Below, piece after piece: positions 32,445 to 39,200 of a stretch of DNA of 64,000 nt. This DNA comes from Candidatus Firestoneibacteriota bacterium (GTDB taxonomy: Bacteria > Oederibacteriota > D2-FULL-39-29 > JBBTED01), in assembly GCA_038042445.1 (NCBI GenBank), contig JBBTED010000027.1, positions 42,470 to 106,469 on the forward strand, read 5' to 3'. The translations under genes and the position numbers were made by a program. Below the pieces are notes generated by a model. It was not told the DNA's origin and did no database searches. It saw only the letters and a program-made list of their open reading frames with translations. The stretch's first letter is position 1, and every line of letters begins with the position of its first letter.

Positions 32445-33167
32445 ATGTTAAATAATATAAATACCTTTATTCAAAAAATTAGAGCTGAACTTAAAATCAA
32501 TGCTGATGAAAAAACTAAACAAAGTTTTCAGCGTTTTTTTAAAGAACAAATTAAGTGTTATGGCGTAAAAACCGAAATAGTACGCAAAATCGCTAAAAAA
32601 TACTGGCAAGAAGTTAAGAAATTGAACAAAAAAGAGGTTTTCTCCTTTTGTGAAAAACTTTATGCTTCAGATTATTGCGAAGAAGCTTTTATTGTTTCTT
32701 ATTGGATTCCAAATTTGACCAGTCAATTTGAACCAAAAGATGTAATGATATTTGAGAGGTGGATTAAAAAATATATCAATAATTGGGCAAAATGTGATAG
32801 TTTTTGCAACCATTCTGTCGGAAATTTTATTGAAAAATATCCACAATACATCAAAGAATTAAAAAACTGGAGTAAATCAGATAATATCTGGTTGAAAAGA
32901 GCATCTGCTGTATCTCTTATTATTCCAGCTAAAAAAGGTAAATTCCTGTCGGATATTTTAGAAATAACCAATCAGTTATTATTGGACAAAGATGATATGG
33001 TTCAAAAAGGATATGGATGGTTATTGAAAGAAGCAAGCAGACATCATCAACAAGAGATATTTAAGTATGTTGTAAAAAACAAAAAGAAAATGCCACGCAC
33101 CTCTTTAAGATATGCTATTGAGCTAATGCCAAAAACACTTAAATCCAAAGCGATGAAACATGATTAA
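32445..33167 (+). CDS. DNA alkylation repair protein (AlkD-like)
   Basis: NNWAKCD, W.KRAS, DMVQKGYGWLLKE, RTSLRYAIE. Confidence 0.88.
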   Translation: MLNNINTFIQKIRAELKINADEKTKQSFQRFFKEQIKCYGVKTEIVRKIAKKYWQEVKKLNKKEVFSFCEKLYASDYCEEAFIVSYWIPNLTSQFEPKDVMIFERWIKKYINNWAKCDSFCNHSVGNFIEKYPQYIKELKNWSKSDNIWLKRASAVSLIIPAKKGKFLSDILEITNQLLLDKDDMVQKGYGWLLKEASRHHQQEIFKYVVKNKKKMPRTSLRYAIELMPKTLKSKAMKHD

Positions 33168-33179
33168 AAAGATTTTTAT

Positions 33180-33431
33180 TTAATTACATCCACAGCCTTT
33201 TTCTGCATCATCATTAAATGCTTCAACACTTTTAATTACTGTTGAAATAACCTTGTCCATTTTACCCATTGCACCTTTTCTTACCATCTTTCCTACTTCT
33301 ATTGCTTCCTCAATTTCCTGTTCATTAGCTCCATTTTCTTTTGCCTTACTGACATGATAGTTTAAACAAGGCTGACAATTTGCAGTAACCGATGCACCAA
33401 TTGCTATCAATTCTTTAGCTTTATCGTCCAT
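33180..33431 (-). CDS. Carboxymuconolactone decarboxylase/AhpD-like protein
   Basis: KELIAIGASVTANCQPCLNYH; C-terminal GCGC. Confidence 0.88.
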   Translation of the reverse strand: MDDKAKELIAIGASVTANCQPCLNYHVSKAKENGANEQEIEEAIEVGKMVRKGAMGKMDKVISTVIKSVEAFNDDAEKGCGCN

Positions 33432-33451
33432 AACACCTCTCCTTTTAATTT

Positions 33452-34150
33452 TTACGATCTTGAGAATTCTGCTTTAGAAAATATATGAATATTGGAATTA
33501 GCCAACAAATTCGTAGTTGTAATTATTGCTGCTATAATATATTTTTTTACAGCTAATTCCTCTTCTTTAACACCAAAACCAGGCATTGATGGTCCGCATA
33601 TATAAAAATTTGCACCTAAATCTTCCAGAATTGCTATAGTCTCTTCAGGGACAGGCCATCCTATTTGATTTTTCAGTATTTTTTTTACGAGTCCAGTAAA
33701 AAGAATACCACTAAATCCTGAAAGTTTTGAGTGATAATCTTTTTTTAACAGCCGCACACCTGCTCCTTCAAATACAATATTTACTTCCATTCCCAATACA
33801 GCTGCAGCTAATGCCTTACAAAAAGGTAAAAGCACTTGTTCTAACCGAGCTGTAGAAATAATAACTGTCATTTTGTTATTGTTTTTCTTTTGTTCACCCT
33901 TCTTAATAAACAAACTTTGTTTGTTTTCTTCCTTTTTTTCTGAACCAAGGAAAATATGGCCTGTTAAATCACAAAATGTTTTAATGTCTGCAAGAATTCC
34001 TTTGTTATCTTTAATAATCACCTCTAAAGTCTCCCCTATTTTAAGATAATCCATTTCTTTAACAATTCTATATGCAACCATATCTGGCTTTAATGTTTTA
34101 GAGGTATCAATAATAGTTTTCTTTATTTTATCTTCAGCCATTATACTCAC
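33452..34150 (-). CDS. TusA-like plus DsrE-like fusion protein
   Basis: N-terminal GETLEV...DIKTFC..TGH (TusA fold without CPxP); C-terminal V.IVFEGAGV, YICGPSM. Confidence 0.7.
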   Translation of the reverse strand: MSIMAEDKIKKTIIDTSKTLKPDMVAYRIVKEMDYLKIGETLEVIIKDNKGILADIKTFCDLTGHIFLGSEKKEENKQSLFIKKGEQKKNNNKMTVIISTARLEQVLLPFCKALAAAVLGMEVNIVFEGAGVRLLKKDYHSKLSGFSGILFTGLVKKILKNQIGWPVPEETIAILEDLGANFYICGPSMPGFGVKEEELAVKKYIIAAIITTTNLLANSNIHIFSKAEFSRS

Positions 34151-34179
34151 CTCCTTATTTAATTCTTGAAGTTAAATTT

Positions 34180-34482
34180 TTATCCGCAACAACTAGTATT
34201 TTGTAAAGTTTTAGTTTTATCTGAACCACAACCGCAAGCTGCTTCTTGTCCTGTTAGTGCTGATATCATCATAGCAGCAGCACATCCTACACCTACTTCT
34301 ACAGATATAGCTTGTGCCTGACAATTTTTCTGACAGGCTCCACATTCCATACAATCTAAAAGATGAATAATCTCAGCTTTTTTATTTCTGATTTGAAAAA
34401 CATTGTGCGGACAAACTTCTATGCATCTGCCACAACCTGTGCATTTGCTTTGTTCAAGTTCTAAAGTAGTTATAGTTTTCAT
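34180..34482 (-). CDS. hgcB: Mercury methylation ferredoxin HgcB
   Basis: CTGCGRCIEVCP and CMECGACQKNC, GVGCAAA, Cys-rich tail CGC..CCG; directly follows hgcA. Confidence 0.95.
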   Translation of the reverse strand: MKTITTLELEQSKCTGCGRCIEVCPHNVFQIRNKKAEIIHLLDCMECGACQKNCQAQAISVEVGVGCAAAMMISALTGQEAACGCGSDKTKTLQNTSCCG

Positions 34483-34495
34483 ATTATCACCCCTT

Positions 34496-35554
34496 TTATA
34501 TAAACTTCCAAACAAATTGGATTATCCAAATACTCAGTGCTGTAACTATTCCAACTGCTATCCAGGGAATTACTGTTTTGATTTCCTGACGCACACCATT
34601 AACAGAAGTATAAGTAGTGGCACCTGTAAAATTAAGTGCAATAAACGCTGAAGCTGAAACATTAGCAGCTAAAAAAGGTATGAACTGCCAGATGGACATA
34701 GGCAAAATTAAACTAATTACTAATGCTTGCAAAAATCCCCAAAAGGCACCTTTTGTAGTCAACCATTTCCCAGGCAAAATATTATGCAAAACTGGAATTG
34801 CAATACCTGTAATCATAATACCAGCTATACTTAAAGCTATAGTAGGGCCAGTAACAAACCATAATATAATAGTAGCCAGTAAAACAGGTAGAAAAACAAA
34901 TCGTAATTCCATAGGAATCAAAATAACTCTCTCTGCTAAATTAAATGTAACCAAACGCATAGATGAAGTAACCCTGCCAGTATCCAAAAAAGCAGGCAAA
35001 TCTTTGGCACGTACTGGTCCATAAACTACACGGAATCCTGTTTGTTTTTCAACTTCATGCGATGCAACTCCAGGTGCACCTAATTGTTGAACAATTAACC
35101 TGTGATGCTTGACTTTTTTTTCTAATTCTGATGTTTGAACACGTCTTACGATTTCTTCAGTTCCAAAAGTACCCTTACCAGCCGCACACCAGACATTAAT
35201 GCCTTTAGTATCCAGAACTAAAATCCATGCATTGTCCCCTTCTAAATTTTTTCTTAAAACATCAAAACTCATACGATAATTAGCAGATACTAATACAGGT
35301 GAATTTTCATCTGGAGTACCCAATGCCCAAAGTCCAGGTGTAACAATAGCATTCATACGCCCTATTCCCCATCTGTATTTCCATTGATTCAAAGTATCAT
35401 AAAAATCAAAATGACTATCTGTTTTGTATATTCTTGTCTGTGACCAAATCTTTGTCTTTTCAGACTGATCTGTACTATCCGGATATTCAATACCATTTAT
35501 ATCTATCCCAGTTACATTACTTAATATATTAGTTACAGCAGTTTTTCTATTCAT
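34496..35554 (-). CDS. hgcA: Mercury methylation corrinoid protein HgcA
   Basis: Cap helix GINVWCAAGKGTFG, LGAPGV, YGPVRA, C-terminal TMs with NFTGATTYTS..GV..E; AAGGTG RBS before ATG 35554. Confidence 0.97.
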   Translation of the reverse strand: MNRKTAVTNILSNVTGIDINGIEYPDSTDQSEKTKIWSQTRIYKTDSHFDFYDTLNQWKYRWGIGRMNAIVTPGLWALGTPDENSPVLVSANYRMSFDVLRKNLEGDNAWILVLDTKGINVWCAAGKGTFGTEEIVRRVQTSELEKKVKHHRLIVQQLGAPGVASHEVEKQTGFRVVYGPVRAKDLPAFLDTGRVTSSMRLVTFNLAERVILIPMELRFVFLPVLLATIILWFVTGPTIALSIAGIMITGIAIPVLHNILPGKWLTTKGAFWGFLQALVISLILPMSIWQFIPFLAANVSASAFIALNFTGATTYTSVNGVRQEIKTVIPWIAVGIVTALSIWIIQFVWKFI

Positions 35555-35583
35555 TTTTAGATCACCTTCTTTATTTATTGTTA

Positions 35584-35883
35584 TTACTGTTTTTTTGTTT
35601 CCTCGGATCCAGAACATTGACAACCACTTAATTTTTTTCGCGCCATTTGCCGAAATATTAAAAACAACCCTAAAAAAAACCATAGTATTCCAACTGCTAC
35701 AAAAATTTTGCTATGTTTGTGCAAAAACGCTACTGTCCCTGCTCCTAACAAAAATGCAAATGGGCCTGCAAGTATTGCACCACCGCAAACAGGAGCACAA
35801 ACAACACAAGTAGCTCCTAACAACCCTGCTACAGATGAAATTGCTCCACCTACCATATTAACTATACCCGCTTTTTTACTCAT
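35584..35883 (-). CDS. Small Cys-rich membrane protein, MerT/MerC/MerF-like
   Basis: About 3 hydrophobic segments; CVVCAPVC after the first, GCQC in the tail. Confidence 0.6.
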   Translation of the reverse strand: MSKKAGIVNMVGGAISSVAGLLGATCVVCAPVCGGAILAGPFAFLLGAGTVAFLHKHSKIFVAVGILWFFLGLFLIFRQMARKKLSGCQCSGSEETKKQ

Positions 35884-36185
35884 TTTTCTTTACCTCCTTT
35901 ATTTATTTCTTCCATCACAGGTCCAAGTATGTTTTTTACCATACCTGCAAGTTCTTCAACTTTTATCAAACAAATACAACACGTTTTTTTATTATCCCCC
36001 ATGCTTGCCACTGCTAATTTATCACCAGATTTGATATTCGCTTTGTCTCTAACTTCTTTTGGCAACACCATTTGCCCACGTTCATCCACACTCACCAATG
36101 CCTCAACTTTGCAACAACTCATATTGTTTATACCGTTTGCATCACAACATGTTTCTTTTTTATTTCTTTTAGCCATTTTACTCAC
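35880..36185 (-). CDS. hgcC: AbrB/MazE-fold regulator, HgcAB-associated (HgcC-like)
   Basis: VDERGQMVLPKEVR..ANI..GDKL AbrB signature with three CC pairs; first gene of the hgc operon. Confidence 0.7.
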   Translation of the reverse strand: MSKMAKRNKKETCCDANGINNMSCCKVEALVSVDERGQMVLPKEVRDKANIKSGDKLAVASMGDNKKTCCICLIKVEELAGMVKNILGPVMEEINKGGKEK

Positions 36186-36199
36186 CCCCTTTTTAGATT

Positions 36200-36261
36200 A
36201 TTCAGTCAATTCTTAAAAATCAGTATATGCTGATTTTACTAAATTTCTGAATTTATGTCAA
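36200..36261 (-). promoter_or_regulatory. hgc operon promoter with palindromic operator
   Basis: TTGACA (36261-36256)-N17-TAAAAT (36238-36233); palindrome aaaatcagtatatgctgatttt at 36216-36237. Confidence 0.65.
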
Positions 36262-36366
36262 TAATAATTTGCAGAGAAGTTTTCCCATTTTTATAAAAAT
36301 AGTACAAACATTTGCAAACAATTCAATGCACCTAAGATGTCATTTTCACAAAACAATAATAATAAT

Positions 36367-36427
36367 GTAGAAGGGGCTTTAGCCCCGGTATTTTCTTCTT
36401 TATACGTTCGCCTAGGCGAACTTCTAC
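36367..36427. repeat. GTAG-type REP doublet
   Basis: gtagaaggggctttagcccc ... gttcgcctaggcgaacttctac. Confidence 0.65.
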
Positions 36428-36566
36428 ATAAAAATTTCATTTCCACTTTCTAATTTTATAAAATCCTTTATTCATCTGTGATTTCCTCAATTTATAACAA
36501 AATTTTGGGGAAATGCCTCTAATTTGCATTGATTTTTTGGATTTTATAATTTATAATCTTGGCTAT

Positions 36567-37793
36567 ATGAAACAAGTATATTTAGACAATCATTCTAATA
36601 CACCAATTGATGAGCGCGTATATAATGAAATGCTGCCGTATTTTTTAGAATTTTATGGTAATGCTCAAAGCATGCATTCTATTGGCGCAAAATCTAAAGA
36701 TGCTATAGAAAATGCACGAACACAAGTTGCAAATCTCATTGGAGCAAAAGCAGATGAGATTTATTTTACATCATGTGCTTCTGAATCTAATAATCTTGCT
36801 ATTAAAGGTATTGCCCAAAGCTATAATCAAAAAGGAAAACATATAATTGTCTCAAGTGTAGAACATTTTTCTGTTCTTTATTCTGCAAAACGTTTAAGTC
36901 AAAATGGATTTGAAGTCACTTATCTTCCTGTTGACAAATATGGGTTAGTTTCACCAGACGATATCCAAAATGCTATAAGAAATGATACTATACTTGTTTC
37001 TATTCAGCATGCAAATCCAGAAATTGGAACAATACAACCTATATCTGAAATATCAAAGATTGTTCATAAAAAAGGTGTTTTATTTCATACAGATGCAGTA
37101 TGCACAACAGGACATATTCCTGTTAATGTAAATGATTTAGGAGTTGATATGTTGACTATATCTTCTTCTTTGATGTACGGACCAAAAGGCACTGCAGCAC
37201 TTTACATAAAAAAAGGTGTGAAAATAATACCGCAAATTGATGGCGGTATTCAGGAAAACGGTAGACGCGCTGGCACAGAAAATGTGCCCTGTATAGTTGG
37301 CTTTGGCAAAGCTTGTGAAATTGCGAAAATTGAAATGAGCGAAAATTACAAAAAATTGCTTAATTTACGCAATCGTTTAATTGCTGAATTGCCTAAAAAA
37401 ATAGAGCATTTATATTTGAATGGCCATCCTGAATTAAGACTTCCAAATAATGTAAACTTCTCAGTTGAATTTATTGAAGGCGAAGGAATGCTTTTGTTTT
37501 TAGACCAAAAAAACATTTCCGTTACAAGTGGATCTGCCTGCACTTCAAAATCGCTAAAAATGTCTCATATTTTATCTGCTATAAAAACAGATACTGCTAT
37601 AGCTCAAGGTTCAGTTCTAATGACTCTTTCAAAATATAATGATGATAACGATATAGACTATGTTTTAGCAGAATTTCCGCCAATTGTCCAAAGACTGCGG
37701 GAGTTATCGCCGTTGTATTCTTATTTTATTAAAACAGGCAAACGTCAGATTGCAGGTCCGGGCACTGATTACGAACATACATATGAACATTAG
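36567..37793 (+). CDS. iscS: Cysteine desulfurase homolog (IscS/NifS) lacking the PLP-binding Lys
   Basis: YLDN, RAGTENV, SGSACTS present; SxHK replaced by SSSL before MYGPKG. Confidence 0.85.
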   Translation: MKQVYLDNHSNTPIDERVYNEMLPYFLEFYGNAQSMHSIGAKSKDAIENARTQVANLIGAKADEIYFTSCASESNNLAIKGIAQSYNQKGKHIIVSSVEHFSVLYSAKRLSQNGFEVTYLPVDKYGLVSPDDIQNAIRNDTILVSIQHANPEIGTIQPISEISKIVHKKGVLFHTDAVCTTGHIPVNVNDLGVDMLTISSSLMYGPKGTAALYIKKGVKIIPQIDGGIQENGRRAGTENVPCIVGFGKACEIAKIEMSENYKKLLNLRNRLIAELPKKIEHLYLNGHPELRLPNNVNFSVEFIEGEGMLLFLDQKNISVTSGSACTSKSLKMSHILSAIKTDTAIAQGSVLMTLSKYNDDNDIDYVLAEFPPIVQRLRELSPLYSYFIKTGKRQIAGPGTDYEHTYEH

Positions 37794-37843
37794 TAGGGGC
37801 GAGTTTACTCGCCCAATAAACGGGCAGGTAAACCTGCCCCTAC
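37793..37843. repeat. GTAGGGGC REP doublet (half copy at 27151-27172)
   Basis: gtaggggcgagtttactcgccc ... gggcaggtaaacctgcccctac. Confidence 0.8.
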
Positions 37844-37882
37844 AATTATCAGTAAATTTTTACACTATTTAAGGAGGAAATT

Positions 37883-38266
37883 ATGCCGTTTTATTCAGAA
37901 AAAGTAATGGAACATTTTCAGAATCCACGAAATGTAGGAGAAATAAAAGACGCTGATGGTATTGGAGAAATTGGAAATCCTGTTTGCGGGGATATGATGA
38001 CTTTTTATATAAAAGTTAAGGATAATATTTTGGAAGATGTAAAGTTTAAGACATTTGGATGTGGAGCAGCTATTGCTGTTTCGTCAATGGTAAGTGAAAT
38101 GGGAAAAGGAAAAACATTAGATGAAGCATTAAAAATAACAAATGCATCAGTTGCTCAGGAACTCGGCGGACTTCCACCGAATAAAATGCATTGCTCAAAT
38201 CTTGGTGCAGATGCATTACACAAAGCAATAGAAAATTATAAGAAAAAACAAGGAGGCACGAAATGA
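37883..38266 (+). CDS. iscU: Fe-S scaffold IscU/NifU-N
   Basis: GNPVCGD, FGCGAAIA, LPPNKMHCS. Confidence 0.95.
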   Translation: MPFYSEKVMEHFQNPRNVGEIKDADGIGEIGNPVCGDMMTFYIKVKDNILEDVKFKTFGCGAAIAVSSMVSEMGKGKTLDEALKITNASVAQELGGLPPNKMHCSNLGADALHKAIENYKKKQGGTK

Positions 38267-38436
38267 AAGAGAAAAAATGCAAATGCCCTTTTTGTGAAGG
38301 TGAATTATTATTTAAATGTGTTGCTCCTGTTTTTTGCGAAAATTGTGCGATAACACTTCTAAAATGCAAAAAATGCGATAATTTATTCAATGAGAAATTA
38401 AAAATTTGCCCAAAATGTGGAGAGAAAAATGACTGA
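38263..38436 (+). CDS. 57-aa double zinc-ribbon protein
   Basis: Not in the ORF track. AGGAGG RBS, ATGA overlap with iscU; MKEKKCKCPFCEGELLFKCVAPVFCENCAITLLKCKKCDNLFNEKLKICPKCGEKND has four CxxC. Confidence 0.8.
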   Translation: MKEKKCKCPFCEGELLFKCVAPVFCENCAITLLKCKKCDNLFNEKLKICPKCGEKND

Positions 38437-38923
38437 AGAAAATTCACCTGTACAAATGAAAGATAAAATGACAATAATTTTATTTTCAGGAGAATTAGAT
38501 AAAGCAATTGCAGCATTCACACTTGCTACAACTGCTGCAGCCAGTAATATGGAAGTAAGCATATTTTTTACATTTTGGGGATTAAATACTTTAAAGAAAA
38601 CAACCTTTGTACCTGCAAAACCACAAATGATAATGCAAAAAATGCTGAATTTTATGAACCGGGGTTTACCACTTTCACGCCTTAATATGTTTGGCTTAGG
38701 ACCATGGATGATGAAGAAACTTATGAAAAAAACCAAAATGGCATCTTTAGAAGATTTAATGAAACTTGCAAAACAATTGAATGTAAAATATATTGCTTGT
38801 ACAACAAGCTGCTCAGTAATGGGACTATCCAAGGAGAGTTTAATTAGTGACGTTAATGAATTTGCAGGTGCATCAACTTATCTTGCAGAGGCTAAAGATG
38901 CAAAAGTAAATTTATTTATATGA
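38429..38923 (+). CDS. DsrE2-family sulfur transferase
   Basis: FSGELDKA, FFTFWGL, IACTTS. Confidence 0.88.
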   Translation: MTEENSPVQMKDKMTIILFSGELDKAIAAFTLATTAAASNMEVSIFFTFWGLNTLKKTTFVPAKPQMIMQKMLNFMNRGLPLSRLNMFGLGPWMMKKLMKKTKMASLEDLMKLAKQLNVKYIACTTSCSVMGLSKESLISDVNEFAGASTYLAEAKDAKVNLFI

Positions 38924-38972
38924 TTTATTTAGCAAAGCTTATGCTTTGCATCTACAAAAAATAATAAATATT

Positions 38973-39200
38973 ATGAACATTACAAAATCACTGGATTGTA
39001 TTGGCCTTTTTTGCCCTATGCCTGTGGTTAAAACTCAGCTTGAACTTGAAAAGATGCAATCAGGTGAAATTCTTGAAATCACAGCAGATGACCCAGGCTT
39101 TGAAAAAGATTTACCTGCATGGTGCAATATGACCGGAAATAAATTCCTTGAAATAAAAAAAGAAGGCAACATCTTAAAAGGCTACGTAATAAAATTGTAG
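38973..39200 (+). CDS. tusA: Sulfur carrier TusA
   Basis: LDCIGLFCPMP, ADDPG..KDLPAWC. Confidence 0.92.
   Translation: MNITKSLDCIGLFCPMPVVKTQLELEKMQSGEILEITADDPGFEKDLPAWCNMTGNKFLEIKKEGNILKGYVIKL

Follow-up and report, generated by a model that had tools for sequence, protein, structure and literature searches.

What does a small, cysteine-rich protein, predicted to lie in the membrane, do among the genes for mercury methylation? In the stretch of 64,000 nucleotides that we have analysed (hereafter the window), which comes from the genome of a Candidatus Firestoneibacteriota bacterium, an open reading frame here called X lies directly upstream of hgcA. A preliminary description of this DNA presented its product as a MerT-like protein and a candidate for the delivery of Hg(II) to the methylating system. 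The entry of Hg(II) into methylating cells is described as disputed in passages of PMC7591507, and the native function of HgcAB itself is called unknown in part of the text of 10.1101/2022.10.17.512643. We have considered in turn the operon in which X lies, the family to which it belongs, its relationship with Mer transporters and the genomic contexts of its relatives.

Organization of the hgcAB unit

The genes of interest lie on the minus strand of the window in the order hgcC-X-hgcA-hgcB, followed by those for a TusA-DsrE fusion and a CMD/AhpD protein. The features of this region are listed below, in the direction of transcription.

36233..36261, minus strand: sigma-70-like promoter, TTGACA-17-TAAAAT, with 11 of 12 consensus matches; top site within 33000-36600
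36216..36237, no strand assigned: inverted repeat with 8-bp arms and 6-nt spacer lying over the -10 box, a candidate HgcC operator
35880..36176, minus strand: hgcC, for a cysteine-rich putative regulator of AbrB fold (NF040962, 'HgcAB-associated protein HgcC', 110.3 bits, cut-off 70)
35584..35883, minus strand: X, for a predicted Mer-superfamily-like membrane protein of 99 aa, with Cys26/29/33 in its core and Cys88/90 in its tail
34496..35554, minus strand: hgcA, for the corrinoid protein of mercury methylation (NF040863, 370 bits, cut-off 275; cap motif NVWCAAGK)
34180..34482, minus strand: hgcB, for a ferredoxin with a Cys-Cys-Gly end (NF040864, 110.2 bits, cut-off 99)
33452..34141, minus strand: TusA-DsrE fusion (PF01206 and PF02635 above cut-off), at short spacing
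33180..33431, minus strand: small CMD/AhpD-family protein (PF02627, 49.9 bits; TIGR00778), after a 20-nt gap

The reading frame of X, with its CxxCxxxC and CxC motifs, is confirmed on the minus strand; it is equipped with a Shine-Dalgarno sequence, AAGGAGGT, and the plus-strand frame over the same interval is full of stops. Its coupling to the preceding gene by an ATGA overlap also stands, and this AbrB-like, cysteine-rich neighbour turns out to be the catalogued HgcC, the position of which upstream of hgcA has already been described (PMC10349881). X does adjoin hgcA, with a gap of 29 nt to its ATG rather than the 30 nt given earlier, and a further 13 nt separate hgcA from hgcB. A longer in-frame start of hgcA at 35683 would overlap X and was discarded; we assign the start to the ATG at 35554, which has a Shine-Dalgarno sequence of its own. 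One contig from a separate study spans the hgcC-X junction without differences; no reads bridging the X-hgcA junction were found in the three sequencing runs examined.

The TTGACA-17-TAAAAT site likely drives the hgcC-X-hgcAB operon, even if promoter-like sites over the region as a whole are not enriched (9, vs. 16.4 in shuffled sequences). Short repeats related to the inverted repeat at 36216-36237 are present upstream of 14 other hgcC-like genes, in metagenome loci spanning L067-L138, and their spacing is often 9 bp. In the 15 loci, 51 operator-like repeats were observed and 6.2 expected, the motif having been picked after the repeats had been seen. We regard the repeats upstream of hgcC as a candidate HgcC operator.

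Because of its short spacing, the TusA-DsrE fusion gene is probably co-transcribed with the hgcAB unit, of which the CMD/AhpD gene is probably the last. Among 103 other hgcA loci, relatives of the DsrE fusion occur in none and CMD relatives in three (the pair here occupying 33180-34141, minus strand), and the portion of 10.1101/2020.02.03.933291 at hand contains one mention of a DsrE-like gene 3' of hgcB. On the opposite strand, a divergent sulfur-handling unit (36513-39200, plus strand) encodes a NifS/IscS-type desulfurase, NifU, DsrE2-like and TusA-like proteins, together with a 57-aa protein resembling a double zinc ribbon; this unit could supply Fe-S clusters for HgcB.

The protein and its family

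X alone has no match in Pfam at E<=10 and hits a single, irrelevant family in NCBIfam (E 0.027). A phmmer search of 1.84 billion representative sequences returned 25 matches at E<=0.001; after dropping two long repetitive ones (P0010 and P0027), 23 homologues of full-length type remained. The phmmer set and further searches provided an alignment of 28 rows, the alignments A1 and A2 being built without P0010 and P0027, the frameshifted P0003, the partial P0025 and the fusion proteins P0016 and P0034. X thus belongs, as judged from these comparisons, to an unnamed family of which about 30 proteins have been found. Given the 23 full-length-type homologues and the retention of Cys33 in all 28 rows, its reading frame is more than a product of chance. 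P0003 is a near-identical copy of X in another public assembly, frameshifted and reduced to 60 aa.

The invariant positions of the family are Gly20, Gly23, Cys33 and Gly47. Of the other core cysteines, Cys26 is present in 23 of the 28 rows, Cys29 in 18, and a fourth cysteine at position 37, which X does not have, in 19; every row has at least two core cysteines and 25 of 28 have at least three. The tail is more variable: among 27 complete rows a pair is found in 16, one cysteine in 8 and none in 3. In X the pair Cys88/Cys90 follows a basic stretch and the protein ends nine residues past Cys90. The charges of the basic N-terminus and of the tail suggest that both termini face the cytoplasm. The AlphaFold model (pLDDT 70, pTM 0.37) has helices at 4-29, 35-54 and 58-85 and no helix after residue 85; a complex prediction for X with the membrane domain of HgcA scored 0.00 and gave no verdict.

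Kinship with Mer transporters

Single members of the family say little about their relatives. When 22 of them were compared with Pfam, PF02411 was matched by 2 and PF05052 by 1, and a generic helix-plus-basic-tail family (LPXTG) by 8; with NCBIfam, NF033560 was matched by 4, MerTP by 2 and MerC by 2, all weakly. The top scores were E 0.024 for PF02411 and E 0.0015 for NF033560, the latter with 18.9 bits vs. a cut-off of 130. MerF (PF11431/NF033565) was absent among the best 25 of the 54 and the best 25 of the 50 families matched by the 22 members.

Profiles are more informative. The family profile, searched in genomes, hit 14 non-member places at E<=1e-4 per genome: 8 are MerT/MerTP-like, 3 belong to another membrane family with Cys-Cys and 3 contain internal stops. 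Of the 8, 4 are above the Pfam cut-off (one of them adjoining a merR gene), 2 match MerTP of NCBIfam below its cut-off and 2 were judged by eye. A first hhalign comparison with MerT (96.7%) was discounted for circularity, since the family profile itself had supplied 4 of the 7 rows. We then assembled an independent set of 19 MerT sequences, comprising 16 of the 20 loci returned by PF02411 and 3 annotated plasmid MerT proteins. Against this set the X family aligns at 95.4% (E 1.7e-8) over 34 columns; the reversed alignment reached 1.2% and 20 local shuffles at most 82%. The 34-column core covers the loop and the last helix and leaves the cysteine cluster outside. Run on the host genome, the independent MerT profile places X at the top of 9,540 frames, though at an E of 0.3, and all 28 family members score higher with it in forward than in reversed orientation (means of 13.1 and -1.4 bits). 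Hence the family is homologous, on profile evidence, to the first half of MerT, namely its first two helices and the loop that follows.

The likeness to MerT/MerTP (PF02411; NF010314, NF033560) extends over the second half of helix 2, an aromatic loop motif, helix 3 and a basic, Cys-bearing loop, and includes a Gly/Ala-rich first segment with cysteines at its end. In contrast to MerT, X has CxxCxxxC (or CxxCxxxCxxxC in the family) instead of a vicinal Cys-Cys in the first transmembrane segment and stops after the tail cysteines, without the third helix of MerT. It also scores far under the family cut-off, and no mer genes, be it merR, merP or merA, adjoin X in G000 (the host genome) or its relatives in the two other genomes with a member, G399 and G679. 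Lacking the vicinal pair, the third helix and a mer operon, X appears as a distant relative of MerT, not as a member. The MerT-like label of the preliminary description was therefore right about superfamily kinship, on the strength of the profile results, and wrong if taken to mean MerT by cut-off or architecture.

Comparison with the rest of the superfamily (MerT/C/E/F) gives a patchier picture. Like X, all of them have cysteines at or within their first membrane segment, and a motif F-L-x-x-Y/H, predicted to lie on the periplasmic side, is common to X, MerT, MerC and MerE. X resembles MerF (PF11431) in size and in its ending of last helix, basic stretch and Cys pair; with MerC (PF03203) it shares a CxxC and the G-FL-x-x-Y motif, whereas MerC has four helices, of which X spans only the first half. 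A cytoplasmic cysteine pair is present in MerT, MerF and MerC and absent from MerE (PF05052). The hhalign probabilities with MerF (13%), MerC (31%) and MerE (2%), each computed with one or two sequences, are no better than the 23% of an unrelated LiaI-like control, and BLASTP of X against MerC gave E 76. The nearest named ESM Atlas clusters to X are those of MerF (score 0.77-0.80), which is a lead only. Structural searches have no bearing either way: Foldseek against the PDB returned one match with the X model, at E 9, and a wide VIA fold search gave generic helices (best Z 5.9), with no Mer entry among the best 50. A sequence search of the PDB with the family profile found nothing under E 0.5. 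Another unnamed membrane family, characterized by the motif A-C-C-x-H-H (L035 1438-1980, L040 1366-1920 and L173), is matched by the X profile; its scanned members have no Pfam or NCBIfam match, and it is possibly another Mer-like branch.

Genomic contexts and rarity

Four independent contexts of the X family can be placed. Each lies next to genes for a metal(loid) methyltransferase, which are hgcAB in two cases and of ArsM type in the other two. The first is that of the window, with X between hgcC and hgcA. The second comes from a different phylum: in the genome G399, X follows hgcB 43 nt downstream (HgcA 432 bits, HgcB 126 bits; no HgcC above cut-off), and the HgcA of G399 is 42% identical to the one here. 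The third, G679, carries the source label Omnitrophota and contains an ArsR-led unit with an SO_0444-type permease (419 bits) and then an ArsM-like methyltransferase (212 bits, under the cut-off of 263), 3 nt downstream of which X is fused to a small cysteine domain (P0016); hgcA was not found in this 93% complete genome. In the fourth, P0034, X is fused in frame to ArsM (NF008823, 334 bits, cut-off 263), and P0002 is a truncated form of the same type of fusion. The domain fused to X in G679 (L175 10437-10934; P0016 residues 85-165) has two cysteine clusters and a weak match to the N-terminus of NF002128 (MtrA-like, E 0.003).

Other metal-related genes of these genomes lie elsewhere. The host genome, 90% complete, has no MerT match, no MerB, and neither MerA nor ArsM above cut-off; for these reasons HgcAB is the only evident sink in it, as far as its gene content tells. 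Among the three genomes, MerA exceeds the cut-off only in G399, on a contig other than that of X, and the ArsM-like gene of G399 is likewise on another contig. G399 also has a merB adjoining a merA broken by an in-frame stop (contig C34; L203 2232-4393) and, on a further contig (L064), a MerT-HMA pair behind a CsoR-type repressor. The N-terminal CC/CU extension that most HgcA proteins are reported to have is absent from the HgcA of both X-linked loci (35450-35554 here; start of L063 in G399). The idea that X substitutes for this extension was dropped; several HgcAs without X also do not have it.

Acr3 and the DUF318/SO_0444-type partners of ArsM are large efflux permeases. X shares with them a predicted place in the membrane and the coupling to a metalloid methylase; it differs in being a Mer-type protein of 90-100 aa, at times fused to ArsM.

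Against known hgcC-hgcA-hgcB operons (NF040962, NF040863, NF040864), the one in the window is distinguished by the insertion of X between hgcC and hgcA. None of the 103 other hgcA loci has X (23 loci from genomes and 80 from metagenomes, 69 of them with at least 400 nt upstream and at least 700 nt downstream), and none has a MerT-like gene; 14 of them have an hgcC-like gene and 6 an arsM-like gene. Searched with the family profile, 98 other genomes of the same phylum yielded no member; hgcA is above cut-off in 23 of 61 relatives, the host genome included. All profile searches combined, which covered at least 1,000 distinct genomes (own included) in overlapping samples, found a member in 2 of at least 999 other genomes, G399 and G679; sets of 79 and 3 genomes within these searches were without one. 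Scans of metagenomes, viruses and plasmids with the family pattern gave none, and those of genome contigs gave two weak Bradyrhizobium stretches, not counted as members.

The absence of X from the other 103 loci implies that HgcAB works without it. X is, on this survey, an optional accessory and not the way by which methylators in general take up mercury; its rarity limits its reach, in that it cannot explain uptake in most of them. The role of a dedicated Hg(II) uptake component for hgcAB in general is not supported, in view of these figures and of the ArsM-type half of the placeable contexts. The expected co-occurrence with hgcA elsewhere is borne out by the second genome, from another phylum, against the 0 of 103 loci.

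Possible function of X

The reading that we favour, tentatively and at somewhat less than an even chance, is that X is a Mer-type carrier working by cysteine relay, which supplies the neighbouring methylase with a soft metal(loid) ion. It sets out from observed features, namely the gene order, the homology to the first two helices and loop of MerT, the conservation of cysteines and the linkage to methyltransferases. According to passages of PMC5715351, MerT moves Hg(II) from Cys24/25 of its first helix to the cytoplasmic Cys76/82, and then on to MerA. By analogy, X would be an inner-membrane relay in which Cys26/29/33 bind the soft ion at or in the membrane, before it goes to the tail pair Cys88/90 and from there, for instance, to the terminal Cys-Cys of HgcB; this is present in the HgcB of the window and near-universal according to part of 10.1101/2022.07.06.499078. 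The methylase would then stand in for MerA, the reductase of mer operons. Here the ion would most likely be Hg(II), handed to HgcAB, and in other genomes the relatives of X may deliver As(III), or an ion like it, to ArsM. Several points speak against such a relay. For single members, generic helix-plus-basic-tail matches outnumber those to Mer families; the core aligned with MerT, of only 34 columns, leaves out the cysteine cluster, and the putative exit pair appears in only 16 of 27 tails. The independent contexts are only four, and 103 other hgcA loci are without X. Excerpts of PMC7438021 and 10.1101/2022.10.17.512643 report that hgcAB is often found among ars genes, so that a shared neighbourhood need not mean a shared function. 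Mercury specificity is not a claim that the contexts would carry, half of them being of ArsM type.

The same cysteines could serve a protein that moves nothing across the membrane. As a partner anchored in the membrane, X may bind the metal(loid) or act in thiol redox, and so buffer the ion or present it to the methylase; the three to four core cysteines (26, 29, 33, 37) would sit on a hairpin turn, more than the pair of Mer transporters, all cysteines would be on one side if helix 1 lies on the cytoplasmic surface, and the fusion with ArsM fits a tether as well as a carrier. We nevertheless consider this unlikely, since X is homologous to a family whose tested members all transport and keeps the F-L-x-x-Y/H motif of MerT, MerC and MerE. 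An improbable origin for X, to a similar degree, would be an arsenic-methylation module made of an HgcC-type regulator, X and ArsM, which came to lie beside hgcAB only through shared metalloid-resistance islands and is functionally unconnected with HgcAB. A site of three thiolates suits As(III), two of the four independent contexts are of ArsM type, one of them in the 93% complete genome where hgcA was not found, and arsM-like genes occur in 6 of the 103 other hgcA loci. Yet X is tightly coupled to hgcAB in both hgcAB contexts, on different sides and with no arsM adjoining; the host genome has no ArsM above cut-off and the ArsM-like gene of G399 is on another contig. Moreover, 19 of 28 rows have the fourth core cysteine and neither of the hgcAB-linked members does, a comparison of two cases only; these members are also split from the ArsM-linked rows, by a weak branch (81/84). 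With only 4 well-supported branches out of 27, the family tree is compatible both with a single clade of the hgcAB-linked pair (p-AU 0.43) and with its absence. As possible marks of hgcAB- vs. ArsM-linked members, the fourth cysteine and the weak branch are a lead only. The second hgcAB-linked member, that of G399, has one tail cysteine.

Least probable of all is that X exports the methylated product, methylmercury here and methylarsenite with ArsM, instead of importing the substrate. The excerpts of PMC5715351 attribute to MerE the carriage of both Hg(II) and CH3Hg, with first-helix cysteines needed for both and a periplasmic His51 for CH3Hg, and methylmercury is said in part of PMC7591507 to leave cells by a route still unidentified. 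His57 of X stands at the position aligned to His51 of MerE, at an alignment probability of only 2%, but this position is Tyr in 23 of 28 family rows, including the other hgcAB-linked member. Mer transporters, moreover, act in uptake (passages of PMC5715351), and the G679 unit already has an efflux permease of SO_0444 type.

The cysteine-relay carrier also has a bolder version, which seems to us doubtful: the genes would form an 'anaerobic mer operon' with X as its dedicated importer of Hg(II), in which HgcC senses the metal, X relays it to HgcAB, and methylation and export replace reduction by MerA as the sink, while the members with a fourth cysteine serve ArsM.

Implications

HgcC, hgcA and hgcB were already catalogued; what appears to be new is an unnamed Mer-related family, rare and tied to metal(loid) methylases. 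Within the titles, abstract openings and passages covered, the literature gave no description of a Mer-type gene beside hgcAB. Present in two hgcAB units and fused to ArsM elsewhere, X is a candidate that is small, simple to express and rich in obvious targets for cysteine mutagenesis; it offers a direct way to ask whether such operons serve mercury, arsenic or both. Should X be a dedicated Hg(II) importer, hgcAB would for the first time have a transporter linked to it genetically, and mercury methylation would be, in some lineages, a selected, purpose-built pathway.
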